58,233 nt of DNA from an uncultured bacterium (GCA_937858895.1 CALLZN010000362.1:1-58233); one strand, 5' to 3'. Positions 2 through 41,195 are shown, numbered from the stretch's first letter. Numbers and translations: made by a program. Notes: a model not told the origin generated them from the letters alone.

Positions 2-373
2 GTGCGGGCGCCGGTGGTCGACGTTTTCGGCCGCGTCGGCGACCGCCTCTCGGGCTACCAGGGCTTGAAGGTCTTCGTCGACGACAAGCCAGCGAGCGTC
101 AACATCGGCATCGGCACGAACGGCAGCTTCTTCTTGACTGGTGTTCCGCTGCGCCAAGCCTCGCCGCCCGAGGCGACCGAGATCCGCGTCTTCGCCGAGG
201 ACGCCGTTGGCAACCGTGCCGGCAAGAGCATCTGGGTGACCTACGTAGCACCCCCGCCACTCAGTCCGACCATCGACATCCTCGACGGCAATGCGTGCGG
301 CAAGTGCTGCCGAAGCTTCTGCGCGTGCGCCTGCGCGATGGGCAAGGTCAACCCTTCGCGAAGAAGACCGTGA
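2..373 (+). CDS. 5'-truncated Ig-like adhesin fragment, probably the upstream part of the giant surface protein (frame break near nt 293)
   Basis: Open frame enters from the left edge. The translation ...IRVFAEDAVGNRAGKSIWVTYVAPPPLSPTIDILDGNA looks like a beta-sandwich adhesin segment. After about nt 293 this frame turns into Cys/Arg junk (CGKCCRSFCACACA), while the neighbouring frame picks up sensible Ig-like sequence. Confidence 0.55.
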   Translation: MRAPVVDVFGRVGDRLSGYQGLKVFVDDKPASVNIGIGTNGSFFLTGVPLRQASPPEATEIRVFAEDAVGNRAGKSIWVTYVAPPPLSPTIDILDGNACGKCCRSFCACACAMGKVNPSRRRP

Positions 374-11300: not shown

Positions 11301-11813
11301 GCGCGGCCGGTTGGCGGCGCGCGCTATCGCGTCGACCACTTCTATTCGGCGAACAACGACCGGGTGCAGACGGAGACGCAGAACCTCGACGAGAACGGCG
11401 CGGCCTATCCGCACGCGACGATCACGGACCGCGCCGACTTCGACATCTTGCACCAGTTGGTGGCGAGCGAACGCGATCGCACACGCGATGACGGCAGCGA
11501 CGCCGGTGTCGTGCGCAGCGAATACTACTACGACGCGCAGACGAACCGCATCGCGGTGCGCGCGCCGCGCCGCGGCTCGGGGCGCGCAGCGCGACGATCA
11601 CGACAACGCTCTACGACGCGCGCGAGCTGCCCTTCCGCAGCGTGCTCGGCGACAGCGATACGAACCCGGGCAACGCGCCGCCGAGCGACGCGGTTGTCAG
11701 CTATTCGAACTACGACGCCAACGGCAACCTGCTCGAGACCTCGGACGCCATCCGCCAGACGGTGCTCGGTGGGCCGACGCCGCGCTTCCCGGGGGCGGCA
11801 CCTGGTGACGTGA
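8391..11813 (+). CDS. RHS/YD-repeat polymorphic toxin, N-terminal part (lipoprotein signal, low-complexity linker, YD repeats); sensible sequence ends about nt 11565-11590, where the frame breaks
   Basis: The ATG at 8391 overlaps the adhesin stop (TGATG). Signal is MSLALPLRLRS...LSLLLTGC with the lipobox Cys at 8508-8510. YD-repeat strings include YDSNGCLARITDRTGQ, YEYDTNDDLIRVTSP, YEYTSEGLLKQVTHPRGN and YEYDTSGNVVAIVDPKGQ. The tail after ...NRIAVRAP is Arg/Ser/Thr junk. Confidence 0.85.
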   Translation: MSLALPLRLRSLVASSLRSGLSGVRPLAPCAALSLLLTGCGMDAPSESVRVSFAPIQGLTTTSHEVPEDGVPVPLGNEVVLRLERDGIITATERVRVDREGVQRIEVRDARGARNVTVEGVRVPSAGIAVRHVLQGPAATYAGGRVRVGVATTPPQFARIVEWFAAGASPSTGFGPSFTTVPPVAASGANAGPSSGPRSGTNGSSAGSSAGNSTGNASGGANSSASIQASVGVHYAPNPIAPVVYSVRWVSKPSKRDYFQATPIVRLYHEIRTDPPGYEHLVPWSYDTTGTATVSATQGLGKEFCIVRTNNRAHRLLCWRVQAGNLVDQGDFVNDLLDTPLQGRSEQPPKNRDCGPPAPASHSLPVNLANGELKFTVTDLRVPSRGFDFVWTRSYASRANFRGPLGYNWTLSYERRVFRIPGATSVSVVDGLQREDIYQKGAGNSYVSAAGYYDALVENQDSTFTQVDREGTRFDYDSNGCLARITDRTGQNSMSFLRNAQCNIEEVVDTQGRKYTLRYSDNSPTQVLTSITDFRGRTVRYEYDTNDDLIRVTSPIVVGTPTGNDFPSGKTTLYTYSQGKSDARLNHNLLSIVEPGYNVGNDPGQSKAMVTMTYATTSDASKIDFDRVIAERWGHDAGGPPSNPNVMVGGATTLAYSTNRGNDPGAPSLAFSRTIETTRNGNVRVHYFDRSLSEIRTITRTNRNVRVGEGDYRTDYEYTSEGLLKQVTHPRGNVTTMVYDEQNARREAQQNKLEVRRQVGAVGGGLTDLVTRYTYEPLYQQTRTITSPRGFPSGNVPLTANGKLDLGDASVARHTVTFVYDYQETSGVQAARGIPEIERIPEGLGDRNGAGDFSVGNLVETRFPTIATSGPNMGQVIAEKRTWNVHGQLIDRIDPTGRRKRHEYYASNNLPFDPSDLEGYVAAIYDDFTGLRLKTSYEYDTSGNVVAIVDPKGQRSETIYNALNQVVRTLARPVGGARYRVDHFYSANNDRVQTETQNLDENGAAYPHATITDRADFDILHQLVASERDRTRDDGSDAGVVRSEYYYDAQTNRIAVRAPRRGSGRAARRSRQRSTTRASCPSAACSATAIRTRATRRRATRLSAIRTTTPTATCSRPRTPSARRCSVGRRRASRGRHLVT

Positions 11814-14800
11814 CGCAGCACGTCTACGACGGCTTCGACCGCCGCGTGCAGACGACCGATCCCGAGGGCGCGGTCGTGACGCTCGGCTACGACTTCGACA
11901 GCAACCTCGTGCTCACGCGCCTCGTTGGCGTCGACTCGCACCGCACGGGCGCGACCCGGCGCACGCTGCAAGAATCGACCGCCGTCTTCGACGAGATCGA
12001 CCGCGTCGTGCGGCGCGAGGTTCGGCACTTCGATGCGAGCGGGACCAACGTCGGCGATGGCGTGCGGCAGACGACCACGAGCTACGACGCTGAGTCCAAG
12101 ATCCTCTACGTCGAAGACGATCGTGGCAACCGGACGACGACGACTTGGGACACGGCGGACCGCGTCATCGTCGTCACCGACGCGCTCCTGAACACGGTCA
12201 CGAACCAGTACGACGCCAACTCGAATCTGACGCTGACGACGCGCGTCGACACGTCGTCGGGCGTCGGGGGCAACGCCGAGACCTTCGTCACGAGCTATGC
12301 GTACGATGGCCTCGACCGTCGCACGCGCAGCGTCGATCCCGACGGGAGTGTGCACGAGTTCTTCTACGACGCGCGCGGCAATGTCGTGCTGAGCTCGGAC
12401 GCGGTGCGTGGTTCGGGCAACGCCGGCAACCTCGTGCGCTATCACTACGACGCGCTGAACCGCCCGTGGAAGACCGTGTCTTCGCTCACGAGCACGGGCC
12501 GCGGCGACGGCGTGGCGGCGGGTTCGATCACGACGACGACGCTCTACGACGACGACTCGCTCGTGGCCTCGAGGACCGATGACAATGGCACGCGCACGCA
12601 GTACCGCTACGACCGGCTCGGCCGCATGGTCGAAGTCGAGTACGGCGACCTGACCAAGCGCACGACGTCGTACAACCGCGACAACCAAGTGACGGCCTGG
12701 ACCGACCAGAACGGCACGGTCGCGTCGATGAGCTACGACGGCCTCGGCCGCATGTATCGGCGCAACGTCACGAAGGGCGTCGGCGTGCTCGGCGCGAGCT
12801 ACGAGGACTTCGGCTTCGATGCGCTCTCGCGGACGACCTTGGCGCAGAACGACGACGGCTTTGGCGCAACCGCGATGCGCTGCGAGTTCGAATACGACTC
12901 GCTGCAGAACATCGTGTCCGACCAGCAAGGGCCGTGGCGCGTGCGGAGTAGCTTCGACGGCATGTCGAATCGGACCGCGTGCACCTACCACGGGTCCTTC
13001 GGCAGCGGCGCGCGCGTCCTGACTTCGACCTACGACGAGCTCAATCGCCTCGCGACGATCTCCGAGGGCGCGACGCTCGTCGCGCGCTACGACTACAAGG
13101 GCCCCGCGCGCGTCGAGCGCCGCCGCCTCGGCGCGACGCCGACGCTGACCTGCACGACGAGCTACGACCTGCTGCCGCGGCCCATCGTCCTCGACCACCA
13201 AACGAGTGCGGCGACGGTGGCGCGCTTCGAGTACGGCTACGACCGCGCGCACCACCGGCTCTTCGAGAAGCGCGTCCACGACGCCAACCAAGGCGAAGTC
13301 TACAACTACGACTCGATCTACCGCGTCGTGCGCGAAGAGCGCAACGTCGACCTGACGAGCGTCGCCGCCGGCACGCGCATCGCGCCTGAGACCTACCGAA
13401 CGAACGACTGGCAGAGTCTTGCCTTCGACGGCGTCCAGAACCGCACGGCGACGATCGACACGGTGGCGAGCACGAGCACGACGACTTCGTGGGCGCGCCG
13501 AGCGTCGACCAACCAGTATGCGAGCCGCCAGGTCGGCAGCGCGGCCGCCGAACTCTTCACCTGGGACGCCAACGGCAACCTGACGGGCGACGGCGCGAAG
13601 CGCTACGCCTACGACTTCAAGAACCGCCTCGTCGAGGTCCGCGACAGGACGACGAGCGCCGTCCTCGTGCGCTACAGCTACGACGCGATGGACCGCCGCG
13701 CCTTCAAGGTAGTCGACCCGCTCGGCACGACGCCCACGACGACGCACTACATCTACGACGGCTCACGCATCCTCGAAGAGCGCGACCAAGGCGGCACCCT
13801 GCTCAAGAGCCACGTCTGGGGCGCCGCCCCCGACGAGCTGCTACAGGTCCAACGCGGCAGCGCCGCGACCGCGACCTACTGGGTCGCCGAGAACTCGCTC
13901 GGCAACATCGCCGCCCTCGTCGACGACTCAGGCACGACCGTCGAGCGCTACGCCTACGACGCCTACGGCAAGACCACGGTCACGCTGAACAGCAACACGG
14001 GCAACGAGTACCGCTTCCAAACGACCCGCCTCGACCCCGAGACGGGGCTCTACTGGTTCCGCGCGCGGCACTACAGCCCGGAGCTCGGGCGCTTCCTGCA
14101 GAAGGACCCGATCGGCATCTGGACCGACGGGGCGAACCTGGGGAATGGCTATGCCTTCGCGGCCAATGACCTGGTCAATGGCGTCGACCCGACGGGCATG
14201 TGGCCGGGCTGGCTTGACGACGCTTGGTACGAGGTCAAATCCGAAGCCGCATGGGCCGCTGATTTTGCAGGCCACTTCGTCGGCGGCGTCGCGAGTGACG
14301 TCGGGAACGCCGCGGCCGGACTCGGGCACGCAGTGTTGAACCCAGGCGAGACGATGGATCGCATCAAGTGCGCGGGTTCACGCATGTGGGACCGTGCCAT
14401 GACACGCGGCGAACTCGTCATGGGTGACGGGGGCAGCGTTCTCGATGGCCTAGGTCAGGTCTTCGGCTCGCTCGGTGGCGATCTCACCGGCATGAGTGGG
14501 ATGATCGACGCGTACATGGGTGCCGACATCGGCAGCTATGCCATGACCGGCGAGTGGAATCAGCTCAGCGACATCGAGCGCTGGCAGACCGGGCTGAATG
14601 GCTTCGCGCAGATGACGGGCCTCTTCGCCGGCGGCGGTACCGCTGGCGAAGCCCTGCATTTCAAGACACTCTACAGCGTACAGGACGCCGCGGACAGCGC
14701 TCGCTGGCTTCGCAATGGCGGAAGTCCGTTCCCCACAGCGGCCAACAAGGCACACTTGGGAGAGGGTCTTTACGCTTGGGAAACAAGGGCAAGCGCACGC

Positions 14801-15070
14801 AACTACCTCACACGCTTGGAAGGCAACGGAGCATCAGAACTGAGCATATTGCGCCATCGCGTAACACGCCGCGAATTGCGCAGCATGAACACAATGGACC
14901 TCACACGCCTACCAGATGCTGCACAGAATTCATGGTTGAATGACCACTCCCGCCTTTGGAATCCCAACGCTACATCCCACGGATTCGATCGTGTCCGACG
15001 CGGCACCCAGTTCGGAAACGAGAATTACTTCAATATCAATGTCTTGCAACAATTCGGACACAGTAGGTGA
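11642..15070 (+). CDS. RHS/YD-repeat polymorphic toxin, C-terminal part (open frame actually resumes about nt 11582-11597): YD repeats, RHS core end motif, variable C-terminal toxin region
   Basis: The frame reads ...ITTTLYDARELPFRSVLGDSD... upstream of the listed GTG. Many YD repeats are present (YDANGNLLETSD, YDGFDRRVQTTDPEG, YDGLDRRTRSVDPDG, YDRLGRMVEVEYGD...). The core ends with YRFQTTRLDPETGLYWFRARHYSPELGRFLQKDPIG...NGVDPTGM (DPxG at 14186-14200). About 290 aa of non-RHS tail follow. Confidence 0.85.
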   Translation: MLGDSDTNPGNAPPSDAVVSYSNYDANGNLLETSDAIRQTVLGGPTPRFPGAAPGDVTQHVYDGFDRRVQTTDPEGAVVTLGYDFDSNLVLTRLVGVDSHRTGATRRTLQESTAVFDEIDRVVRREVRHFDASGTNVGDGVRQTTTSYDAESKILYVEDDRGNRTTTTWDTADRVIVVTDALLNTVTNQYDANSNLTLTTRVDTSSGVGGNAETFVTSYAYDGLDRRTRSVDPDGSVHEFFYDARGNVVLSSDAVRGSGNAGNLVRYHYDALNRPWKTVSSLTSTGRGDGVAAGSITTTTLYDDDSLVASRTDDNGTRTQYRYDRLGRMVEVEYGDLTKRTTSYNRDNQVTAWTDQNGTVASMSYDGLGRMYRRNVTKGVGVLGASYEDFGFDALSRTTLAQNDDGFGATAMRCEFEYDSLQNIVSDQQGPWRVRSSFDGMSNRTACTYHGSFGSGARVLTSTYDELNRLATISEGATLVARYDYKGPARVERRRLGATPTLTCTTSYDLLPRPIVLDHQTSAATVARFEYGYDRAHHRLFEKRVHDANQGEVYNYDSIYRVVREERNVDLTSVAAGTRIAPETYRTNDWQSLAFDGVQNRTATIDTVASTSTTTSWARRASTNQYASRQVGSAAAELFTWDANGNLTGDGAKRYAYDFKNRLVEVRDRTTSAVLVRYSYDAMDRRAFKVVDPLGTTPTTTHYIYDGSRILEERDQGGTLLKSHVWGAAPDELLQVQRGSAATATYWVAENSLGNIAALVDDSGTTVERYAYDAYGKTTVTLNSNTGNEYRFQTTRLDPETGLYWFRARHYSPELGRFLQKDPIGIWTDGANLGNGYAFAANDLVNGVDPTGMWPGWLDDAWYEVKSEAAWAADFAGHFVGGVASDVGNAAAGLGHAVLNPGETMDRIKCAGSRMWDRAMTRGELVMGDGGSVLDGLGQVFGSLGGDLTGMSGMIDAYMGADIGSYAMTGEWNQLSDIERWQTGLNGFAQMTGLFAGGGTAGEALHFKTLYSVQDAADSARWLRNGGSPFPTAANKAHLGEGLYAWETRASARNYLTRLEGNGASELSILRHRVTRRELRSMNTMDLTRLPDAAQNSWLNDHSRLWNPNATSHGFDRVRRGTQFGNENYFNINVLQQFGHSR

Positions 15071-32647: not shown

Positions 32648-33379
32648 TCAAACGACCGACGGATCGAAGAGAACCCGCGGCACATAGGCGAGGGCAGCCG
32701 CACCGAAGAGCTGCTCGTAGTTGTTCGCCTTCGACCATAGCTTGCGCCCGTGCTCGAGGAAGCGTCGTTGCAGACGTCGTCCCTCGTCGCGCGACGCCCG
32801 CACGCCCGCACCGTGCAGACTCGCGACAAAGCTGTCGAGGTAGCGCGCCATCGTATGGTCGACGCTGAAGTCCTCGGGCACGACCCCGCGCACCGCGATC
32901 ATCGCTTCGCTCGCGAAGGGCGCGAGCCCATGCTCGAGCACGTCGCCGCTGTCTTGCAGCTCGAGCGCGAGGCCGCGCAGCTCCGGATACTCGGTGCTCG
33001 AACAGCAGATGTCGAGCAAGAGCGCGTCCCAAGTGTTGTCGATCGCAAGCGCTTCGAGGAAGAAGATCGGCGCGCTGCGGCCCGGATCGGGCAAGGCGAG
33101 AATCGACACGCTCTCGAAGGACCCGTCGAAGCTCGTGCCGCGCAGGATCGCAACCCGCGAGAGCGGGCCTTGGCCGACGAAGTGCCGTGCATCGACGCCG
33201 ACGCGCTCAGCGTTCCAGTCCGTCTCGAGCACCGCCTCGTCACTCGCGAGCGGGATCTCGCGCAGCGAAAGACCTTCGAGCAAGACCTCCTCGACGTGCT
33301 CCATGAAGAAGTCGATGCGCAGCGCGAGCAAGGGTGCGCTCGGCACGTAGCGCGCGTGCAGTTGGGTGGTCCCGGTCAT
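32648..33379 (-). CDS. Ferredoxin-dependent bilin reductase (FDBR, Fe_bilin_red)-like protein, catalytic residues apparently not conserved
   Basis: 243 aa, the FDBR size class. SILALPDPGRSAPIFFLEALAIDNTWDALLLDI resembles, from memory, the PcyA block [21 protein letters not shown]..AIADL. The C-terminus RRLQRRFLEHGRKLWSKANNYEQLFGAAALAYVPRVLFDP resembles ...[28 protein letters not shown]. The ATG at 33379 overlaps the ParA stop (ATGA). By-eye alignment only. Confidence 0.5.
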   Translation of the reverse strand: MTGTTQLHARYVPSAPLLALRIDFFMEHVEEVLLEGLSLREIPLASDEAVLETDWNAERVGVDARHFVGQGPLSRVAILRGTSFDGSFESVSILALPDPGRSAPIFFLEALAIDNTWDALLLDICCSSTEYPELRGLALELQDSGDVLEHGLAPFASEAMIAVRGVVPEDFSVDHTMARYLDSFVASLHGAGVRASRDEGRRLQRRFLEHGRKLWSKANNYEQLFGAAALAYVPRVLFDPSVV

Positions 33380-34161
33380 GCTTCGTCCTCGAGCAGTTCC
33401 TTGGCGATCTTGATGTAGTGTTGGGCCGGTATCGACTCGGGCTCCGACACGACGACCGGCAGGCCTTGGAGCAGCGCGTAGCCGACGATCGAGTCGTAGG
33501 GGATGGCGTGCTCGAACATCTTCGACCCGAAGCGATTGCGCAGGCCGCGCTCCCAGCGCCCGCCGATCTCCTCGCCTTGCGGAAGCGTGAGCACGATGCC
33601 GCGCAAGTTCGGTGCGAGGCCGACGCTGTCGAGGCGGCGGATGTCGTGCAAGAAGCCGGGAAGCGTGCGGTAGGAGAGCGGCTCGGCGCGGATCACGAGC
33701 AGGAGCTCCTTTGCATTCGCGAGCAGGTCACGCGACTTCGCGCCGGCGTAGGGCGGCGAGTCGACGAGGATGACGTCATAGGGCTCGTCGAAGTCACGCT
33801 CGGCGAGGGCGCGCAACCAGTCACCGAGCTTGGGATCGCCGCGGAAGTCGTCGGGCGTGCACGGCAGGACGTCGAGGTTGGGTTCGACATCGGTCAGGAT
33901 GGCGTCGCTCTTACCCTCGGCAGCGCGCTTCAAGCCGCAGCTGCGCGGAACCTCGAGGTGCAAGGACGCCGCGATGCTGCTGACCGGGTCGACGTCGACG
34001 ATGAGAACACGCTTACCGAGCTCGGCGCAGGCCACGCCGAGGTTGATCGTCGTCGTCGTCTTGCCGACACCGCCCTTCTGACTTCCGACCATGATGGTCC
34101 GGGTCGCTCGCTCTTCGAGGGCCCTCTGCTCGTGCAGTGAACGCGTCGCGCCGTGACTCAT
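33376..34161 (-). CDS. ParA/MinD/Soj-family P-loop ATPase (canonical deviant Walker A)
   Basis: IMVGSQKGGVGKTTTTINLGVACAELGKRVLIVDVDP (KGGxGKT, DxD). Walker B is YDVILVDSPP. The ATG at 34161 overlaps the stop of the upstream triple-ParA gene (ATGA). The listed ORF extension to 34464 is Arg-rich junk. Confidence 0.9.
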   Translation of the reverse strand: MSHGATRSLHEQRALEERATRTIMVGSQKGGVGKTTTTINLGVACAELGKRVLIVDVDPVSSIAASLHLEVPRSCGLKRAAEGKSDAILTDVEPNLDVLPCTPDDFRGDPKLGDWLRALAERDFDEPYDVILVDSPPYAGAKSRDLLANAKELLLVIRAEPLSYRTLPGFLHDIRRLDSVGLAPNLRGIVLTLPQGEEIGGRWERGLRNRFGSKMFEHAIPYDSIVGYALLQGLPVVVSEPESIPAQHYIKIAKELLEDEA

Positions 34162-37100
34162 GACAGTTCTCCTCGGCCATCCGCCGAAGCCGTGGGATTC
34201 TTCAAGATTGGATTCTGGTCGGCGCTGCCACTCGAGGCCGTTTGGACCATGGAGGCGAAGAGGCGCAAGAGCGACGCAGCACGCGGGTTGATACCGCAGT
34301 GCGCGACGAGGCCATCGCCGCAGTCGAGGTCGAGGACGACGCCCAAGCCGAGCAAACCGAGCTCTTCGCCGAGCGTCGCAGCTTGGGCGACCGCGCGGTC
34401 GAGATACAGACAGGCCTCCTGCGGACGTCCCAGCGCAAGCGCGAGGACGCCGGCGAGGAAGCACGCGTCCGACGAAGTCGAGTTCGCAGCGAGCACCGCG
34501 AGCGCGTCCGTATAGCGCCGCTGGAGGAAGGCACGCAGTCCGACGCCGAGCGCCCCGTGACCGTGACCGAGGAGCTCAACGACTTGGCCGGTCTCGAGCG
34601 AAGTCGCGGCGCGCGGTTCCGACACCGCCGCGCTCACGCTCGTCGCCGCGCTCGAGCAGACCTCGCTGTAGACGACGCCCTTCTGCACGAGTACGGTCGC
34701 TGCCGGCCTGGCGAGCTTGCCTGGCCGCAGCACGCGGCCTTCCTCGCACGGGAACTCCGTGCCGAGGGGCTCGAAGCGCAGACGCAAGCCCAAGGCCGCG
34801 ACTTCACTCTGTAGCCCGAGGGCTGCCGCCGCTCTGCGCGCATCGACCGTGAGCTCGAAGTCGTGGCGGATCCACCAGTCTTCCTCGAAGGACGTGATCT
34901 GCTCTTCGATCGTCGCGAGGACCTCGAGCAAGACGTCGACGGCCGGAGCGCGCACTTCACCGGTCGCGAGTTGCCGCGCCCAGCTCACGAGACCTTCACT
35001 CGCGCAAGCGGCGCGTGCGATCGCTTCGCTGCGCGCCGCGCCCGCGTCGAGCAGCGACATCAAGATGTGCAGGACTTGGCGACCGCCGCCGGTCGCGTCG
35101 AGCGTCTCGCGAGCGAGGTCGAGGATGCCGTCGCTGTCCTCGTCATCGCGCAGCGTCTCGAGCAGCTCGTGGCAGCGGCCGACGAGCTCGGAGAACTCCG
35201 CCCCACCACAGCCATCGAAGAGCACGAGGTCGACGCCATGCCAGCCTGCAAAGTGCTCGTCGTCGGGCCTTGCGAAGCGCAGCTTGCCCCCGCCACGCAC
35301 GCCCGGCGTCAATGCCGAACCGACGAGGACGACCTTGCGGCCGAGGATGCTCGTCATCCAAGCGACGATGAGGGCAGCGGCCGTGAGCGACGCCTCGTCC
35401 TCGGCGAGGTCGGAGACCGCGAGCACATAGGTATCGACTTCGTCGAAGGGCACCCGCGCTTGGTCGCCCTTCGCCTCGGTCGCGGCCTGGATGCCGAAGA
35501 CGCCCTCCTCGATGCGATCGGCGACGCGGCAGTAGACATCGAACGCGGCGCCTCGCGGCAGTTGCGCACCGGGCTGCATGGCCCAGTCCGCCACTTCCTG
35601 CTGCCACGGCACAGGCTCGCCAAAGCAAAGCTGACCGAGCTGCTGACGAATCTCGGGCCAGATTCCAGCCTGCAGCGGATCGGTCGCGCAGTAGAGATTG
35701 ACGAGGACACCGAAGTGATCGAAGCGCGCCCCGCGCGCCTCGGCGGCCCGCAGGGCGTGGATCGCCGCTGGGATCGTGCGGATGGCGAGCGGGTCGGGCA
35801 GCACTGTCAGCAGAACAGCGTCCGATGCGTCGAGGACAGCGTCGCAGCCCTGCTCGAGCAGCGGCGGCGTGTCGACGAGCACGAGATCGGGCGCGAAGTC
35901 GATGCAGTCCGCCATCGCCGTCATCCGTGAGGCAACACGCACGTTCGAGGCCGCCTCGATCAGGGTCGTCCCGTCGCCGGGCGTCGCGCTGAAGAGCTGA
36001 AGGGTCCGCGTCGCACGCGCATCGAGGACGAGGACGCGGCGCCCCCGCTCACCGAGGATGGTTGCGAGCGCGAGGGTCGCGACGCTGCGGCCGGTGCCGC
36101 CCTTGTGGCTCGAGAGCGAGAGGACGAAGGGCTTCGTGCCCGCGCGCTCACAGCCAAGCGTGAGCTCGGCGAGGAAGGCCGCGCCGCCTTCACCGGCCGA
36201 CCTGGTGTCGACCAGTTCGGAGCGATCGGCAGCGTATCCGCGCGTGGACGACGCGGCGACGCCCCGCGCGCCTGCGGTCTCGATGTCGGGCTCTTCGAAG
36301 ATGCGCGGCGCGAGCTCACGGGCAAGACGCGCATAGGCATCGCCCGCCGCACCCTCGGGCACGGGCCCGCCGAGCAGGCCCCATTCGACGAACTCGTCCT
36401 GCAAGGGAATCGGTGTCTCGAGGCAGAAGTCGCCGAGACGCTCGCGCAGGTCGCGGACCATGTCGCGCTGCAACGGATCGTCGGCGTCGTAGACCGAGAC
36501 GCAGATACCGAGGAGTTCGAGTTCGGCGTTGACGCGCTTCGCGTCGACGAGGGCGCGCGTAGCACCCGGGATCGTGCGGAAGGCCAAGGGATCGGGCAAG
36601 GTCGTCAGCAGCACGCCATCGGCGCGTTCGCAGAGCTCGCGCGATGCCGCCTCGAAGATCGGCGGCGCGTCGACCATAACGAGGTCGTAGCGGGCGTCGT
36701 CAGCGTCGGCCGCGGTCTGCCCGAGGGTGACGCCTGGGAAGAGTTCGCGCTTCCCGCCCTGCGAGAAGAGGTGCAGCGTCTTCGTGACGTTGGCGTCCAG
36801 CAAAAGGACGCGCTTCCCGAGTGCCGCGAAGGCCGCGCCGAGCGCGAGGGTCGTGGTCGTGCGCCCCGTGCCGCCCTTGTGGCTCGCGACGACGAGGCGG
36901 TACGGCGCGCGGCGCTGCGGCCCGCGTTCGCGCTCGCTCGAGAGGAGCGCCACCTCTTCGGCCGACTCCTGTGGAGCCCGCTCCGTAGCGTCTGCGACTT
37001 CGAGCCCGAGGTCGGCGGCGAGCTCCTCGACGAGGCGGTCATGGGCCTTGCCATAGGCGCCGCGTGGCAGCTCGCCCTTGGCGTCCATCGACCAGTCAGC

Positions 37101-37652
37101 AACGTCCTTCTGCCACGGAAGCGGAGGCTCGAGACAGAGTTCGCCGAGCCGCGAGCGCAGCGTGTCGAGCATCTCGAGCTGGAGCGGATCGTCGCTCTTG
37201 TAGATCGAGACGACGATGCCGAGGAAGCTCAAGTCGTCGTGCAAGGCGAGCACTTCCTTGAGCACACTCGTCGCGCCCGGGATCGTGCGGATCGCGAGCG
37301 GATCGGGCAGGGTCGTCAGGATGACGCCGTGCGCGCGACCGATGAAGGCGTCAGCGCCGCGATCGAAGAGCGGCGGACAGTCGAGGATGACGTAGTCGAC
37401 GCCGAGGCGGGCAGCCTCGCCGGGTCGACCCGTGCCGACGTAGACGCTCGGCAAGAGCTCGCGCTCTTCGATCGGAGCACCTTGCTTGTCGGCGCCGAGC
37501 AAGAGCTCCAAGGTCGGCGTGACGTTGCCGTCGATCAAGAGAACGCGCTTGCCGCGGTCGGCGATGGCGCGAGCCATGCCGATCGCCGTCATCGTGCGGC
37601 CCGTGCCGCCCTTGTGGCTCGCGATCGCGAGGACGTAGGGGTGTGGGCTCAT
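34158..37652 (-). CDS. 1164-aa protein with three tandem ParA/MinD-like domains carrying SHKGGTGR(T/S) P-loops, a fourth degenerate ParA-like domain and a helical C-terminal region
   Basis: D1: YVLAIASHKGGTGRTMT...GKRVLLIDGN...DYVILDCPP...ILTTLPDPLAIRTIPGA. D2: YRLVVASHKGGTGRTTT...GKRVLLLDAN...YDLVMVDAPP...LLTTLPDPLAFRTIPGA. D3: FVLSLSSHKGGTGRSVA...GRRVLVLDAR...PDLVLVDTPP...LLTVLPDPLAIRTIPAA. D4: YVLAVSDLAEDEASLTAAAL...GRKVVLVGS...VDLVLFDGCGG (P-loop lost). An identical 19-mer, gtgccgcccttgtggctcg, occurs at 37603, 36868 and 36094. The ATG at 37652 overlaps the upstream stop (ATGA). The listed extension to 38012 is junk. Confidence 0.85.
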   Translation of the reverse strand: MSPHPYVLAIASHKGGTGRTMTAIGMARAIADRGKRVLLIDGNVTPTLELLLGADKQGAPIEERELLPSVYVGTGRPGEAARLGVDYVILDCPPLFDRGADAFIGRAHGVILTTLPDPLAIRTIPGATSVLKEVLALHDDLSFLGIVVSIYKSDDPLQLEMLDTLRSRLGELCLEPPLPWQKDVADWSMDAKGELPRGAYGKAHDRLVEELAADLGLEVADATERAPQESAEEVALLSSERERGPQRRAPYRLVVASHKGGTGRTTTTLALGAAFAALGKRVLLLDANVTKTLHLFSQGGKRELFPGVTLGQTAADADDARYDLVMVDAPPIFEAASRELCERADGVLLTTLPDPLAFRTIPGATRALVDAKRVNAELELLGICVSVYDADDPLQRDMVRDLRERLGDFCLETPIPLQDEFVEWGLLGGPVPEGAAGDAYARLARELAPRIFEEPDIETAGARGVAASSTRGYAADRSELVDTRSAGEGGAAFLAELTLGCERAGTKPFVLSLSSHKGGTGRSVATLALATILGERGRRVLVLDARATRTLQLFSATPGDGTTLIEAASNVRVASRMTAMADCIDFAPDLVLVDTPPLLEQGCDAVLDASDAVLLTVLPDPLAIRTIPAAIHALRAAEARGARFDHFGVLVNLYCATDPLQAGIWPEIRQQLGQLCFGEPVPWQQEVADWAMQPGAQLPRGAAFDVYCRVADRIEEGVFGIQAATEAKGDQARVPFDEVDTYVLAVSDLAEDEASLTAAALIVAWMTSILGRKVVLVGSALTPGVRGGGKLRFARPDDEHFAGWHGVDLVLFDGCGGAEFSELVGRCHELLETLRDDEDSDGILDLARETLDATGGGRQVLHILMSLLDAGAARSEAIARAACASEGLVSWARQLATGEVRAPAVDVLLEVLATIEEQITSFEEDWWIRHDFELTVDARRAAAALGLQSEVAALGLRLRFEPLGTEFPCEEGRVLRPGKLARPAATVLVQKGVVYSEVCSSAATSVSAAVSEPRAATSLETGQVVELLGHGHGALGVGLRAFLQRRYTDALAVLAANSTSSDACFLAGVLALALGRPQEACLYLDRAVAQAATLGEELGLLGLGVVLDLDCGDGLVAHCGINPRAASLLRLFASMVQTASSGSADQNPILKNPTASADGRGELS

Positions 37653-38092
37653 GCTTGCCACCGCAGTGTGGACATTACCGTCGCGACGCTCGGTGCGTGC
37701 AGGCTCTCGAGGTCGCCGCTGTCGCCCATGATCCTGTCGCTCGGGGCGCTGTCGCTCGGGGCGCCAACGGCCTGCACGATCTTGCTCTCGGTCTGCGGCC
37801 GCCCTTCGGCAAAGGCCATCCAGTCGATCGAGTCGACGTGGCGGCGTGGAGCCGAGCGTGGCTGGACGACGCGGCCGCGACGCGCAGAACGGGCCGCTGG
37901 CTGCCCACGCTTGCGGTCCCGGCCATCCTGCCCGTCGGCGCTCCTGCTCGTACTGTCGCTCACGCTGGTGCTCGCGGTCTCGACCTCGTCTTCGCCGTCC
38001 CAGAGCAGCCAATCGAGGAAGCGTCGCAGCAAGCCGCGACGACGATCTTCGTGTCGAAGGCCTTCGTTGCCCATGTCCTTGTCGCTCGTCAT
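37649..38092 (-). CDS. 147-aa low-complexity, probably disordered protein (operon member)
   Basis: Sequence is MTSDKDMGNEGLRHEDRRRGLLRRFLDWLLWDGEDEVE...DSIDWMAFAEGRPQTESKIVQAV.... My hand codon read shows mostly G/C at third positions in this frame. The alternative frame (the N-terminal extension of the ParA ORF) is Arg-rich junk. The stop overlaps the next ATG (ATGA). The start lies 4 nt after the upstream stop. Confidence 0.55.
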   Translation of the reverse strand: MTSDKDMGNEGLRHEDRRRGLLRRFLDWLLWDGEDEVETASTSVSDSTSRSADGQDGRDRKRGQPAARSARRGRVVQPRSAPRRHVDSIDWMAFAEGRPQTESKIVQAVGAPSDSAPSDRIMGDSGDLESLHAPSVATVMSTLRWQA

Positions 38093-38096
38093 CGGA

Positions 38097-38729
38097 TCAC
38101 GCACGCGGGTCCGCGCTCCCTCGGATTCGAAGCAAGACGTCATCGAGCTTCGCGCTCTGCGGCGCTTCGACCGCAACGAGGCGCTCCTTGGCCGTTACGA
38201 GCAGGCGCTGCGCTGCCCCTCGACTTGTTGATGGCGCATCCTCGATGTGCACGGCATCGAGCTCGGTGCGCGCGAGCGCCTCCAAGGCCTCGACCACGAC
38301 TCCGCCAACGAAGGCGCTGCACGGCGGCGACTCCCCACAGCTGACGTCGACGAAGACGATGCCCTCGTCCGCGAGTTCGATGTCCAGACTCACTTCACCG
38401 AAGCCGCAATCGCGGCACTGTCCCGCGAGGACCTGGCGAAACTGGACCAGGGCTAGGGCTTCGATCGGTGCTTCGTAGCAAGTCTCGACGACCGTGCAGA
38501 GCTCTTCGAAGAAGTTCTTTCCAAAGGCCCGCCCCATGTCGAAGACCGGGCGCGGTGAAGGCGAGGCGTCGGCGAGCTCAGCGAGCCACGCCTCGAAGAT
38601 GGCCCCCTCGAAAGACAAGAGGCGCAAGCCCGAGTCGGTGCGCAGGCAGCCGCTCACGTCGCGGCTCACGCGCTCGTCGAGCCTCGGCGGGTAAGCGCGG
38701 TGCAGGGGTCGCTTGCGCAGCTTCATCAT
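38097..38729 (-). CDS. V4R (4-vinyl reductase/BchJ-type, Bet3-like) domain protein
   Basis: LRLLSFEGAIFEAWLAEL...FDMGRAFGKNFFEEL...CGFGEVSLDIELADEGIVFVDVSCGESPPCSAFVGGVVVEALEALARTELDAVHIE fits the V4R pattern (R.l...G...G......GwG.....d......v.v......c.f..G...g.l.......v.E). The ATG at 38729 overlaps the globin stop (ATGA). Confidence 0.55.
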   Translation of the reverse strand: MMKLRKRPLHRAYPPRLDERVSRDVSGCLRTDSGLRLLSFEGAIFEAWLAELADASPSPRPVFDMGRAFGKNFFEELCTVVETCYEAPIEALALVQFRQVLAGQCRDCGFGEVSLDIELADEGIVFVDVSCGESPPCSAFVGGVVVEALEALARTELDAVHIEDAPSTSRGAAQRLLVTAKERLVAVEAPQSAKLDDVLLRIRGSADPRA

Positions 38730-39229
38730 CGTGCGACCCGCGCGTCTTCGAGTTGTGAGAAGTCACCGAGCACCATCACTACCTCGTCGAGGTAGGGCTT
38801 GGCGAAGTCGAAGGTGATGCCCGACAAGGCATGTTGCAGCTCGTCGCGCAGAGTCCCGTAGACATCACGCACGAAGGACGGCGTGAAACCGAGGGCGCGC
38901 AGCACCTGGCGGTGTGGGATCAAGAGACGGTCGCGCAAGTACTGGATATCGTCGATGAGCACGGCTTGGGCAACACAACGAAGCGTGAGCTGCAGGTCGC
39001 GGCTCGTGTGCTCGTAGCCGTGCTCGTGGAAGTCATCGAGCTGCGGGTAGTGCGAACGCACGGTGCGCATCGTCGCGTCCAAGACCTTGGTCTCGCAGCG
39101 TTCGATCTCCTGCTCGAGGGCGATGCGGCAGTGCACCGAACCCGCATACTCGAGGATGCGCTCGCGCTCGCTTTGCAGCAGGTAGCGTCGATCGCAACCG
39201 CGGACGATCTTCGAGATCTTGTCGTTCAT
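38726..39229 (-). CDS. Phycobiliprotein-like globin (Phycobilisome-protein family fold) lacking the canonical bilin-attachment Cys
   Basis: 167 aa, the phycobiliprotein size class. CDRRYLLQSERERILEYAGSVHCRIALEQEIERCETKVLDATMRTVRSHYPQL parallels ADAEARYLSPGELDRIKSFV..G.RR..IA..........I....N.LF.K.P... EHTSRDLQLTLRCVAQAVLIDDIQYLRDRLLIPHRQVLRALGFTPSFVRDVYGTLRD parallels ..[29 protein letters not shown]..LG.P......... (allophycocyanin/phycocyanin recalled from memory). The R-D of the CxRD motif is kept, but Cys is replaced (TSRD). Confidence 0.6.
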   Translation of the reverse strand: MNDKISKIVRGCDRRYLLQSERERILEYAGSVHCRIALEQEIERCETKVLDATMRTVRSHYPQLDDFHEHGYEHTSRDLQLTLRCVAQAVLIDDIQYLRDRLLIPHRQVLRALGFTPSFVRDVYGTLRDELQHALSGITFDFAKPYLDEVVMVLGDFSQLEDARVAR

Positions 39230-39233
39230 CGCA

Positions 39234-39521
39234 TCACCAAGAGATCTTGTGCAAGTAGTGTTGGTCGCGGTCTTCGGGCAGCTTGGTCGAGGCTTCGACT
39301 TCGTCGACCGCGAGCGCCGGCGCAGCTGCCTGCCCCGTCCACGGCAGACCGGCGAAGAAGGACCCGACGGCGACGCGTTCTCTCGAAGAGCGCAGCGTCG
39401 TCGTTGACGCGCGCGATGCGGCGCTGCCGGTCGACGCGGCGCGCATGCCGCGCGCAGGTCCCAAGAGGTCGAAGAGCAAGCCCGTCTCTTCGAGGTCGTC
39501 GAGGAAGTCACCGTCGTTCAT
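39234..39521 (-). CDS. 95-aa small protein with acidic N-terminus (operon member)
   Basis: GGAGGA lies 5 nt upstream of the ATG at 39521 (minus strand reads cgcggaggacaacgATG). Sequence: MNDGDFLDDLEETGLLFDLLGP...FFAGLPWTGQ...EDRDQHYLHKISW. Third codon positions are mostly G/C by hand read. It starts 14 nt inside the 3' end of the upstream gene and ends 4 nt before the globin ATG. Confidence 0.5.
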   Translation of the reverse strand: MNDGDFLDDLEETGLLFDLLGPARGMRAASTGSAASRASTTTLRSSRERVAVGSFFAGLPWTGQAAAPALAVDEVEASTKLPEDRDQHYLHKISW

Positions 39522-40134
39522 CGTTGTCCTCCGCGTAACTCGCCGTGTGGCCTGTGATCGCGCTGTCGAGCCCCTCGCCGAGCAGGACCGCCTCGCGGAG
39601 CGTCGCCATGTGCAAAGGGCCGCCGATCGCGATCGTCCACAGCTCGGCGTCGGCGTCGCTGCACGACACGTCGACCGCAGCGAGCTCACGTGATGCCAGC
39701 GACGAAAAGAACGCAGCGAGCTTGCCCGCGACGTGCTCGACGAGGACCCGCGCCGACGCATGGTCGAAGCCCCCGACGCGACCACGCGCGAGGAGGACAC
39801 CGAGCCCTGCGTGCTGCCGTTCGACGGTCCATGCTCCCAAGCCACGCTCACGCAGCTCGAAGAGCCAGTGTTCGACGACGAGATCGAAGGGCAAGTCCGC
39901 GACGGCGCGCCCGTGCAGCTCTTCGAGCACACGACAAAAGGCCGGCATCGTCTTCTCGCCTAGCGCGCGACCGACGCGGTGGAAGGCCGCCTGGCCGCTC
40001 TTCTCGTCGCAGCAGCGCGCGATGGCTGCCGGCAGGCGCGCGTCCATGAGGCGGCGCTCGCCCGTCTCCGTCCGCACGGCGAGCGCGTTCGACGCATCGA
40101 TCAAGAGAGCCGAGTAGCCATGGATCTCGCTCAT
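39508..40134 (-). CDS. V4R-like domain protein (second copy, more divergent)
   Basis: RRLMDARLPAAIARCCDEKSGQAAFHRVGRALGEKTMPAF...RERGLGAWTVERQHAGLGVLLARGRVGGFDHASARVLVEHVAGKLAAFFSSLASRELAAVDVSC follows the same R.l...G...G...GlG.w.ve...........G.l......l....v...C pattern as the 38097..38729 product. The ATG at 40134 overlaps the kinase-like stop (ATGA). Confidence 0.45.
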   Translation of the reverse strand: MSEIHGYSALLIDASNALAVRTETGERRLMDARLPAAIARCCDEKSGQAAFHRVGRALGEKTMPAFCRVLEELHGRAVADLPFDLVVEHWLFELRERGLGAWTVERQHAGLGVLLARGRVGGFDHASARVLVEHVAGKLAAFFSSLASRELAAVDVSCSDADAELWTIAIGGPLHMATLREAVLLGEGLDSAITGHTASYAEDNDERR

Positions 40135-41195
40135 GCTTCGTCCTCCGGCTTGCGCTGCGTGCGTTGACCCTTGCGAAAGCTCTGGGTGAGCTCGGCGCGC
40201 ATCGCGTCGAGGGCCGAAGCGGTCGCCTTGGTCGAGACCTCGGCGGCGTCGGCAGGACGCCGCGTCGACTTGGTGCTGCGTCGCCGCTCTTGGTCGCGCG
40301 CGTCGGTCGGAAAGCCGCCGTCGCTCTCGTCGAGCCAGTCGAGCTTCTGATCGATCTCGGCGCGGACACCGCCCTGCATCGACGCATCCTCGACGTCGCC
40401 GAGCTCCTCGGGCGCGTCTTCGATGGCCTCGTGCAGCATGCGACCCACCACGAAGAGCAACTCGGAGTGGCACGAGAAGCGCGTGCTCGGATCAAAGGCC
40501 ATGCAGCGCTCGAGCACCGTGACGAGCTTCGGCGCGTGACCTGCCTGCAAGAGCTTTCCGAACTGGTCGAAGCTCTCCGCCGCCGTGCGCGGGCGATGAG
40601 GCTCGAAGCCCGCGATCATGCGGAAGAGCAAGGAGCCGAGCGCATAGACTTCGCTGGCCACCGTCACCGGCCCGCTGTCCAACTCCGGTGCACGGTAACC
40701 CGAAGGCGTTCCCGGCAAGCCCCAGTCGAGCACGGTCACGTGGGCGTCGGCGCCGAGGAAGACGTTCTGCGCGCAGAGCCCCGGATGCAGGAGACCCGCG
40801 CTGCCGACCGCGGCCAGGATGCCGGTGACCTCGAGGACGACGCGCAGCGCCGATCGCGCCTTGAAAGCGCCGATGCCCGCCGCAAACGACTCGAGCGTCG
40901 AACCGTAGAGCGGCGCGAAGATCGCATGCGCGAAGGGCTCGAGCCCCCCACCCGTCATGTGGACCATGCCTCGCAGACCGCCACGCGCGAGGATCGGCGC
41001 GTGGGTGTCGAACCAGGCTATGCCTGGGTCCTCGAGCGTCTTGAAGATGCAAACATCCAGGCTCTTCTTGTCGACGGCGAGGAAGGCCTTGCCATGGGCA
41101 CCGAATTCCGTGCACGCCGCGAAGCGGAGGCCGAGCATCTCGCCTCCCTCGGTCGGCACAGCAGTTCTTGCTTCGTCTTGGATCTGCGTGGACAT
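40131..41195 (-). CDS. Ser/Thr protein kinase-like pseudokinase with charged, disordered C-terminal tail (alternative SD-supported start at 41138)
   Basis: Kinase subdomains are recognisable: VCIFK (VAIK-like Lys), LLHPGLCAQNVFL in place of HRDLKPxNILL (catalytic Asp replaced by Gly), VLDWGL (DFG-like), YRAPE (APE), SEVYALGSLLFRMIAG, DPSTRFS. GGGAGG lies 4 nt upstream of the internal ATG at 41138 (gagggaggcgagATG). No SD precedes the ATG at 41195. Confidence 0.7.
   Translation of the reverse strand: MSTQIQDEARTAVPTEGGEMLGLRFAACTEFGAHGKAFLAVDKKSLDVCIFKTLEDPGIAWFDTHAPILARGGLRGMVHMTGGGLEPFAHAIFAPLYGSTLESFAAGIGAFKARSALRVVLEVTGILAAVGSAGLLHPGLCAQNVFLGADAHVTVLDWGLPGTPSGYRAPELDSGPVTVASEVYALGSLLFRMIAGFEPHRPRTAAESFDQFGKLLQAGHAPKLVTVLERCMAFDPSTRFSCHSELLFVVGRMLHEAIEDAPEELGDVEDASMQGGVRAEIDQKLDWLDESDGGFPTDARDQERRRSTKSTRRPADAAEVSTKATASALDAMRAELTQSFRKGQRTQRKPEDEA

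Follow-up and report, generated by a model that had tools for sequence, protein, structure and literature searches.

What does a protein built from several ParA-like domains with altered ATPase sites do next to an ordinary ParA? The question is raised by a locus in a 58,233-nucleotide stretch of DNA from an uncultured bacterium (GCA_937858895.1 CALLZN010000362.1:1-58233), which we call the window, meaning the whole stretch. ParA/MinD ATPases are understood as homodimers that are switched by partner proteins. The window encodes a 1,164-residue protein with three tandem ParA-like domains, each with Arg in place of the catalytic P-loop Lys, and a canonical ParA gene follows it directly. Proteins with this substitution are called Arg-type here, and those with the usual Lys are called canonical or Lys-type. 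From sequence and comparative evidence, we put the probability at about one half that the large protein is an ATP-binding, hydrolysis-poor, nucleotide-dependent partner or scaffold of the adjacent ParA.

Three ParA-like domains with altered P-loops

The large gene, its parts and the adjacent ParA gene are as follows, with residue numbers in brackets.

34158 to 37652, minus strand: multi-domain Arg-type ParA-like protein, 1,164 residues plus stop, from translation, Pfam and orthologues
37008 to 37652, minus strand: domain D1 (1-215), with SHKGGTGRT, LLIDGN, YVILDCPP and LPDPLAIRTIPGA; Soj 1wcv match at E 1e-12
36912 to 37007, minus strand: linker 1 (216-247), predicted to be disordered with a predicted local distance difference test score (pLDDT) of <50, evolving neutrally
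36288 to 36911, minus strand: domain D2 (248-455), with SHKGGTGRT, LLLDAN, LVMVDAPP and LPDPLAFRTIPGA; Soj match at E 4e-18
36138 to 36287, minus strand: linker 2 (456-505), including one predicted helix
35487 to 36137, minus strand: domain D3 (506-722), with SHKGGTGRS, VLVLDAR, LVLVDTPP and LPDPLAIRTIPAA; Soj match at E 7e-8
34938 to 35450, minus strand: D4 (735-905), a probable degenerate ParA-like domain, in register by hhalign and weak by HMMER
34161 to 34937, minus strand: C-terminal domain (906-1164), partly TPR-like and helical, with a weak Pfam TPR_2 match and predicted helical hairpins
33376 to 34161, minus strand: canonical Lys-type ParA (261 residues), with SQKGGVGKT, VDVDP and ILVDSPP; Soj match at E 6e-28

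The large protein begins MSPHPYVLAIASHKGGTGRT, and its start codon is backed by orthologues that open with MTSRPYVLA. Pfam CbiA matches it in three stretches with 126.9 bits (cutoff 25.4; E 6e-37), and Pfam AAA_31 matches it with 104.6 bits. The top PDB sequence match of each of D1, D2 and D3 is T. thermophilus Soj (1wcv). Foldseek searches with the predicted models also placed Soj and ParF best, with TM scores of 0.66 to 0.79. By its fold, and by sequence similarity above curated cutoffs, the protein is a member of the ParA/MinD (deviant Walker A) family.

Soj K20 aligns with the Arg of SHKGGTGR(T/S) in all three domain alignments. The cis P-loop Lys of GK[ST] is absent from D1, D2 and D3, which have Arg instead. 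None of the three has an acidic residue at the equivalent of Soj D44, the second Asp of switch I, whether the alignment is gapped or ungapped; the local sequences are DGN, DAN and DAR. HMMER deletes the LDPQ segment in this region, and the ungapped alignment with 4pfs sets Asn under Asp. The Soj structure 2bek is the D44A mutant. The trans-acting signature Lys (SHK) is kept in D1, D2 and D3 and is absent from D4. The Thr or Ser after the Arg and the Walker B Asp (hhhhDxPP) are retained in all three domains, and the block LPDPLA(I/F)RTIP(G/A)A is found in all three copies.

The 19-nt string that encodes the P-loop, GTGCCGCCCTTGTGGCTCG, occurs in exact copies at 36094, 36868 and 37603, where the chance expectation is 0. 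The DNA copies of D1 to D3 share just 65-80% identity, and they are therefore old duplicates.

An earlier note on this DNA had described the tandem domains, the Arg for Lys, the lost second Asp (Asn, Asn and Arg), the two conserved blocks, the repeated string, a fourth copy with SDLAEDEAS and a translationally coupled canonical ParA. All of these bore up, the fourth copy with moderate support.

Orthologues and selection

The exact large protein is present on two contigs (P0001). A protein with at least 90% identity to it (P0154) is present in three further assemblies (Logan contigs). Full-length orthologues with 65-66% identity were found in two Planctomycetota metagenome-assembled genomes (MAGs; P0002 and P0003). 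Both keep all three SHKGGTGR loops, and P0002 was recovered from both NCBI and Logan assemblies. A further orthologue (P0004) lies on the closed 7.7-Mb chromosome of the cultured Saltatorellus ferox Poly30. Its best local alignment has 36% identity at 36% query coverage, and over the full length the two proteins align collinearly. D1 and D2 of S. ferox have no P-loop (LKLESGATT and GVGSASKSG), and SHKGGTGRT is found only in its D3. The triplicated form comprises four proteins in all, three 90%-identity clusters in the lineage of the window and the one in S. ferox.

Against the MAG orthologues, the ratio of nonsynonymous to synonymous substitution (dN/dS) was 0.14-0.26 in D1, D2, D3, D4 and the C-terminal domain (D1, 0.14-0.18; D2, 0.16-0.19; D3, about 0.2), 1.0-1.2 in linker 1 and 0.6-0.7 in linker 2, all of them approximate ratios because dS is about 1.1 and near saturation. 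Every domain of the large protein is under purifying selection.

A repetitive gene on a metagenome-style contig could be a mis-assembled collapse of separate ParA genes, a prospect that the earlier note had raised, or a non-functional remnant. Either kind of artefact is effectively refuted. The DNA copies differ too much for a collapse, the same architecture recurs on the independent contigs and assemblies above and on the closed S. ferox chromosome, and the domain dN/dS values argue against decay.

In a neighbour-joining tree of domains, D1 to D3 of the window cluster with D3 of S. ferox. D1 and D2 of S. ferox fall among other degenerate domains, which is probably long-branch attraction, and the tree leaves the order of duplication unsettled.

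An Arg-type family in Planctomycetota

A profile of Arg-type domains was searched against 1.84 billion representative proteins. It retrieved about 50 clusters at E < 1e-30. Most are single-domain proteins of about 210-230 residues with the same motifs. Among the 50%-identity clusters only two are multi-domain, that of the window (four stretches) and that of S. ferox (three stretches). Natural fusions of a Ser/Thr kinase with an Arg-type ParA-like domain also occur (P0015, P0029 and P0038).

We defined the family by SHKGGTGR[TS] together with L(T/S)xL(A/P)DPLxxRT(V/L/I)P, DPLQ and W..PG..LP.G, and built its profile from single-domain members only. D1, D2 and D3 score 181, 204 and 191 bits against this profile and contain the family motifs.

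Residues were counted over 82 domains drawn from the search hits and the genomic loci.

Catalytic Lys position: R 66, K 8, T 3, Q 2, N 1, A 1, C 1
Signature Lys: present in 73 of 82
Thr or Ser after the catalytic position: present in 82 of 82
Switch-I Asp: first present in 77 of 82, second in 51 of 82 (Asn in 7)
Walker B Asp: present in 81 of 82

This is the pattern of a predicted nucleotide-binding site that is kept while the catalytic constraint is relaxed. Arg is common across the mostly single-domain family, and the triplication therefore inherited it. On these counts the change from Lys to Arg is a family hallmark that predates the triplication. The earlier note was right that Arg is present in each copy; the three are not parallel events. 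Its systematic loss of the second Asp likewise stands for D1 to D3. Within the family, this loss is a subclade trait, seen in the window, S. ferox D3, P0034 and the P0054 group.

By sequence, then, the large protein is a rare, lineage-specific and internally triplicated member of an undescribed Arg-type family in Planctomycetota. Literature searches on KGGVGR and on Planctomycetes with V4R and ParA-like proteins returned no account of the family or of its pairing with ParA, nor did term searches of the 2023 paper on BBAG clusters and of a 2024 review on ParA/MinD proteins. KGGxGR is not among the entries of a published table of deviant Walker A motifs (PMC9178275).

Pairing with a canonical ParA

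The large gene and the canonical ParA gene share the four nucleotides ATGA, with the TGA stop of the first overlapping the ATG start of the second. This ParA has 72% identity to its S. ferox counterpart and 86% to its counterpart in MAG HK-STAS-PLAN-28. Aligned with Soj, it does not have the arginines of PRNVR. We scanned species-representative genomes with the single-domain family and recovered about 30 loci, nearly all from Gemmataceae or other Planctomycetota. The canonical ParA gene lies directly downstream of the Arg-type gene in all 28 of the loci that have downstream DNA. Translational coupling of the two genes is frequent in the family.

Generic Soj genes dominated the results of a scan with canonical-ParA patterns, which was of use only in finding ParA loci without an Arg-type gene. 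Four such loci (L050, L053, L055 and L057) encode high scorers on the cluster K-ParA model with no Arg-type gene upstream. These four ParAs do not contain the (A/P)(D/E)PLxxRT(L/I)P motif, so they may or may not belong to the same subfamily. If they do belong to it, the dependence is one-way, and the Arg-type protein is the dependent partner.

The Arg-type proteins and their canonical partners share (A/P)(D/E)PLxxRT(L/I)P at the position where Soj has AEYYALEG. Because of this shared motif, the sequences suggest that the two are tandem paralogues. In Gemmataceae the canonical ParA is often fused to WD40 arrays (L013, L014, L018, L038 and L007), with up to 17-20 repeats in the largest proteins, those of 1,400-1,700 residues. 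A large interaction module is thus found on one partner or the other. It is the WD40 array on the ParA in Gemmataceae and the extra domains with a TPR-like end on the Arg-type protein in the window, where the canonical ParA is bare.

The canonical ParA relatives P0073 and P0086 have a hydrophobic, transmembrane-like C-terminal segment, and these ends suggest that the system may be membrane-anchored in some lineages. At L046 (approximately 5780-7527 of JGI Ga0604654_0000123, a 221-kb contig), an Arg-type frame contains two in-frame stops. They sit exactly at Trp positions conserved in the family (LA*LWGQ and CP*DRV). The frame is then free of stops into the canonical ParA, and phage-like genes are close by. 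The stops could reflect a pseudogene, a sequencing error or recoding.

The fourth domain and the C-terminal region

D4 aligns in register with the ParA-domain alignment by hhalign over 131 columns, with a probability of 65% and E 6e-5. The alignment places SDLAEDEAS under SHKGGTGRT and VDLVLFDGCGG under VDYVILDCPPL. HMMER recovered only the alpha1-beta2 stretch (22-43 residues; i-E 0.005-0.01), and AlphaFold confidence is low across the domain. D4 has 79% identity to its orthologues with dN/dS 0.14, and it is missing from the S. ferox orthologue. It is a probable relic of a ParA-like domain, with moderate support from the profile alignment.

The C-terminal domain has a weak Pfam TPR_2 match at residues 1062-1090. 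AlphaFold predicts helical hairpins at residues 1034-1089. Searches with D4 and the C-terminus against PDB sequences gave no match below E 0.3. The C-terminal domain is common to P0054, P0059, P0064 and P0068 (E 4e-13 to 4e-6). These four proteins contain a single degenerate ParA-like domain (LKPHAGRS, DxN) followed by a C-terminal domain of the window type. The P0054 locus (L044/L045), which is the only one of that group examined, is solitary and has no canonical ParA or globin cluster nearby.

Structure prediction

AlphaFold2 models were made for one chain with no ligand and from shallow alignments of 3-4 sequences. The model of the full protein (4 sequences) had a mean pLDDT of 58 and a predicted TM score (pTM) of 0.32, and D4 and most of the C-terminus were below 50, which makes it of no use for judging how the domains pack. 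The model of D1-D2 had a pTM of 0.47, and Foldseek returned only single-domain Soj and ParF matches for it. Superposition of two domains on ArsA was poor, with a TM score of 0.24-0.28 and a root mean square deviation of 17-23 A, for models that are themselves shallow and ligand-free.

Proposed function and its alternatives

We propose that the large protein acts on the adjacent ParA as a partner or scaffold. ATP binding would persist in each Arg-type domain, given that the signature Lys, Gly-rich loop, Thr or Ser and Walker B Asp are kept. Hydrolysis would be poor in each, with Arg in place of the cis Lys and, in the window clade, Asn or Arg in place of the water-activating Asp. The protein would probably meet the canonical ParA in a face-to-face sandwich of the ParA type, with one competent and one degenerate site. 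The TPR-like C-terminal domain may tie the complex to other products of the operon. The three intact Arg-type domains would then be a multivalent version of the 1:1 partner of Gemmataceae.

Several comparative facts fit this proposal. They are the pairing in 28 of 28 loci, the ATGA coupling, the kept binding motifs alongside a relaxed catalytic Lys position, the kinase fusions and the domain dN/dS of 0.14-0.26. BcsQ offers a biochemical precedent. Its cis Lys is replaced by Thr and its switch-I Asp by Cys, and the purified protein is a sandwich dimer with bound ATP and weak ATPase activity (PMC7840130). The earlier note had already suggested a nucleotide-binding, hydrolysis-poor partner or scaffold. 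The comparative evidence now strengthens the partner role, and poor hydrolysis is read from the residues.

Some points weigh against a partner or scaffold of this kind. The expectation that P-loop NTPases with Arg for the Walker A Lys are usually crippled in hydrolysis is carried over from other proteins, such as RecA K72R. Heterodimers are not documented for the ParA/MinD family proper, and a 2024 review makes no mention of them. S. ferox has lost the P-loop from two of its three domains, and nucleotide binding is therefore not essential in every domain. The inter-domain confidence of the AlphaFold models is low. Finally, an apparent fusion of Arg-type protein and canonical ParA in a single open reading frame (P0012) was not counted, as its Arg-type part contains two in-frame stops and the case is ambiguous.

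The main rival makes the protein a self-contained pseudo-oligomer. D1 would pair with D2, and D3 with D4, as ATP-bound sandwiches within one chain. ATP would be a structural ligand as in BcsQ, the arrangement would resemble A1:A2 of ArsA, and the canonical ParA would be a client or a mere neighbour of a static scaffold. Four tandem domains on flexible, neutrally evolving linkers of 20-50 residues suit such a design, as do the signature Lys in D1 to D3 and the precedents of ArsA (a tandem SIMIBI pseudo-dimer) and BcsQ (a stable ATP-bound dimer). We nevertheless think it unlikely. The AlphaFold models, shallow and ligand-free as they are, contain no confident packing between domains and fit poorly on ArsA, which decides neither for nor against an internal pre-formed dimer of the kind that the earlier note had offered as a 'pre-dimerised' switch. 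The ParB/McdB-like adaptor role named in the same note is likewise neither supported nor opposed. Most family members have a single domain and yet are always paired with a canonical ParA. In S. ferox, which has no D4 and only D3 intact, the one intact domain would be left unpaired.

Residual catalysis, a role in a conflict system and the artefact dismissed above are less likely readings. In a working ATPase, Arg would stand in for Lys, another residue or a partner would activate water in trans, and three cooperative sites would form a motor or timer. Purifying selection has conserved the other motifs of the nucleotide site, the DxD Asp is found in most single-domain relatives (51 of 82 domains), and the authors of the BcsQ study favour delayed, partner-triggered hydrolysis for that protein (PMC7840130). 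This is still improbable, as family members have any of R, K, T, Q, N, A and C where the catalytic Lys would be, the window clade has no second Asp either, and D1 and D2 of S. ferox and D4 of the window are retained despite having no P-loop. More improbable again is an effector or regulatory module of a defence system. Kaur et al. (2020; PMC7159879) described predicted-inactive MinD/ParA-like domains C-terminal to S/T/Y kinases in vWA-MoxR/VMAP systems of multicellular prokaryotes, and the kinase fusions of the Arg-type family and the WD40 arrays of its partners recall those architectures. Neither the genes called in the loci of relatives nor the window operon genes tested include vWA, MoxR or any other defence gene. 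PADLOC gave only P-loop matches of about 40 residues to the candidate PDC-M28B and generic kinase matches, and the conserved globin and V4R neighbours look like a sensory or cofactor module.

If a ParA-derived, degenerate partner of a canonical ParA is indeed conserved, it would add a different regulatory logic to the family. The relatives form a natural series for its dissection, with one domain in Gemmataceae, three domains with one intact in Saltatorellus, and three intact domains plus a relic in the window. With a cultured strain and a closed genome at hand for S. ferox Poly30, the hypothesis is directly testable.

The operon and its globin, V4R and kinase genes

The other operon genes of the window are as follows.

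40131 to 41195, minus strand: kinase-like protein (354 residues); Pfam Pkinase at E 8e-6, below the cutoff; 68% identical to the orthologue in L001, a related MAG
39508 to 40134, minus strand: V4R-A-like protein (208 residues); BLASTP E 1e-15 to a Gemmataceae V4R protein; 292 bits with a custom V4R-A hidden Markov model (HMM)
39234 to 39521, minus strand: small acidic protein (95 residues), beginning MNDGDFLDDLEE
38726 to 39229, minus strand: phycobiliprotein-like globin (BBAG-like, 167 residues); Pfam Phycobilisome at E 1.4e-13
38097 to 38729, minus strand: V4R-B-like protein (210 residues); BLASTP matches to Gemmataceae V4R proteins; 278 bits with a custom V4R-B HMM
37649 to 38092, minus strand: 147-residue protein with an Arg-rich amphipathic N-terminus, RRRGLLRRFLDWLLW; orthologue M_124
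32648 to 33379, minus strand: 243-residue protein, ATGA-coupled to the canonical ParA gene; no Pfam match

The order in the operon is kinase-like, V4R-A-like, small acidic, globin, V4R-B-like, 147-residue, multi-domain protein, canonical ParA and 243-residue protein. The genes are tightly coupled, with ATGA or ATGATGA overlaps at most junctions. With custom HMMs, the recurring order across loci is kinase, V4R-A, a variable gene (x), BBAG, V4R-B, kinase, Arg-type ParA and canonical ParA, and the ParA pair usually closes the operon at its 3' end. The earlier note had not described this operon context. The S. ferox locus has the same core, preceded by genes for a ferredoxin-dependent bilin reductase, haem oxygenase and ferredoxin. 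A tblastn search recovered none of these three genes from the window or from the 23.5 kb of contig that make up the L001 locus. The window does have the globin and two V4R proteins by which BBAG clusters are recognised. Membership in a known defence system was rejected, since PADLOC had no specific model match for the operon proteins.

In the kinase-like protein, LLHPGLCAQN replaces HRDxKxxN, with loss of the catalytic Asp, and DWG replaces DFG; APE is kept. It is a probable pseudokinase by sequence, so the window-clade operon would pair a dead kinase with dead ATPase domains. The clusters of S. ferox and Gemmataceae encode full-length kinase genes, as identified with Pfam Pkinase (S. ferox) or a custom kinase HMM. 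The Gemmataceae protein matched by the V4R-A-like protein has a Pfam V4R match at E 1.5e-12. The V4R-B-like protein matches two Gemmataceae V4R proteins, one of 266 residues and one of 216 residues with a weak Pfam V4R match. The window globin has 35-39% identity to its S. ferox and Gemmataceae counterparts. The N-terminus of the small acidic protein resembles, by eye only, that of the 119-residue product at the same position in L001, MTGDDFGFLDDLEE. The 243-residue protein has a 60% identical orthologue in L001 and none in S. ferox, and it may be a lineage-specific partner.

The stop codon of the 147-residue gene overlaps the start of the large gene (ATGA). No Pfam family matched its product. 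Similar motifs also end the C-termini of the single-domain proteins P0010, P0014, P0020 and P0040, after a CxxC...CxxC segment (for example, TTRLLMRRFLSFLG). The C-terminal membrane-targeting helix of MinD is KKGFLKRLFGG. The stretches in the 147-residue protein and in these C-termini resemble it and may serve to anchor the proteins in a membrane or, as peptides, to stimulate ParA.

A wider proposal would join these genes to the ParA pair, and we advance it as doubtful. The Arg-type and Lys-type proteins would together make up a ParA/MinD ATPase that is obligately heteromeric, with one ATP site competent and the other degenerate. In the window lineage the degenerate partner would have been triplicated into a multivalent platform able to engage several subunits of ParA. 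The pair would provide the output of a bilin-globin/V4R/Ser-Thr-kinase sensory module and so connect the sensing of tetrapyrroles, light or redox state with spatial organisation in Planctomycetes. As a gene pair, it is a conserved and so far unreported accessory of bilin-globin/V4R clusters, which are discussed as ancestors of phycobiliproteins and also occur in bacteria that are not photosynthetic.

Gemmataceae-type clusters were also present in MAGs labelled 'uncultured Alcaligenaceae' (L012, L014, L023, L030 and L035); the labels are probably wrong. Elsewhere in the window, positions 295-15070 on the plus strand contain a 2,698-residue open reading frame with a weak CarboxypepD_reg match, followed by two large RHS-repeat proteins (DUF6531 and RHS). 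The 14-22 kb stretch has a GC content of 0.62-0.63, compared with about 0.68, and contains open reading frames of 751 and 974 residues without a Pfam match. Together these regions look like an Rhs toxin locus with a variable end.

Comparison with known systems

BcsQ is a known example of a degenerate ParA/MinD protein, and ArsA of a tandem SIMIBI protein. We did not find described, in the literature searched, an Arg-P-loop family that is obligately paired with a canonical ParA at BBAG/V4R/kinase clusters, or its triplicated form.

BcsQ resembles the large protein as a ParA/MinD protein in which the cis P-loop Lys and the switch-I Asp are both replaced, and as an ATP-bound dimer that serves as a regulatory scaffold with partners (PMC7840130). 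It differs as a single-domain homodimer with Thr at the Lys position and Arg for the signature Lys. It works with BcsR and BcsE at cellulose synthase and has no adjacent canonical ParA. The large protein is not assigned to the BcsQ family, as it scored 99.6 bits on TIGR03371 against a cutoff of 157.85. The operon genes tested and the genes directly beside them include no bcs gene.

ArsA shares the tandem duplication of a SIMIBI, deviant-Walker-A domain in one chain with a flexible linker, and it forms a pseudo-dimer. Unlike the large protein, it has a metalloid site and two domains, each of which contains GKT. The ArsA/Get3 clade was rejected on 21.6 bits with Pfam ArsA_ATPase (cutoff 24.3) and on the best match of each domain to Soj/ParA.

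Soj (1wcv and 2bek) and small ParAs of the ParF type are the best sequence and fold matches of D1 to D3, and have the signature Lys and Walker B Asp in common with them. Where Soj has GKT and DLD, the window protein has GR(T/S) and DxN or DxR. Soj acts together with Spo0J/ParB and DNA, as a homodimer of single-domain subunits, and no ParB is encoded at the window locus. NCBIfam NF047398, a 'KGGVGR-motif variant AAA ATPase', records a P-loop variant in which Arg takes the place of the Lys, but only the first 40-50 residues of each window domain match it. Membership was rejected at 85.3 bits summed, against a cutoff of 90, and 27-37 bits per domain.

The conflict-system domains of Kaur, Burroughs, Iyer and Aravind (2020) are also degenerate MinD/ParA-like domains associated with or fused to Ser/Thr kinases, and the Arg-type family has fusions of this kind. 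They sit in vWA-MoxR/VMAP systems, and that study described no triplicated form and no obligate canonical-ParA partner.

The window operon was compared with the Synechocystis slr0144-slr0152 cluster for its globin and V4R content. The cyanobacterial cluster is followed by a TPR protein and the kinase SpkG. The operon also resembles the pre-PcyA/BBAG clusters of Rockwell, Martin and Lagarias (2023; PMC10151467), in which a phycobiliprotein-like globin is flanked by two V4R proteins. The S. ferox cluster is of this type as they define it, whereas the window has no bilin reductase, haem oxygenase or ferredoxin gene. Their paper mentions no ParA-type ATPase.

McdA/McdB and other systems of a ParA with an adaptor likewise place a ParA-type ATPase gene beside a dedicated partner gene. 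The known adaptors ParB, McdB, MinE and PomXY are not ParA homologues, whereas the partner in the window is built from ParA-like domains. For the asymmetric sites of the proposed heteromeric pair, the closest analogies we draw are with heterodimeric ABC proteins and with SRP/SR.

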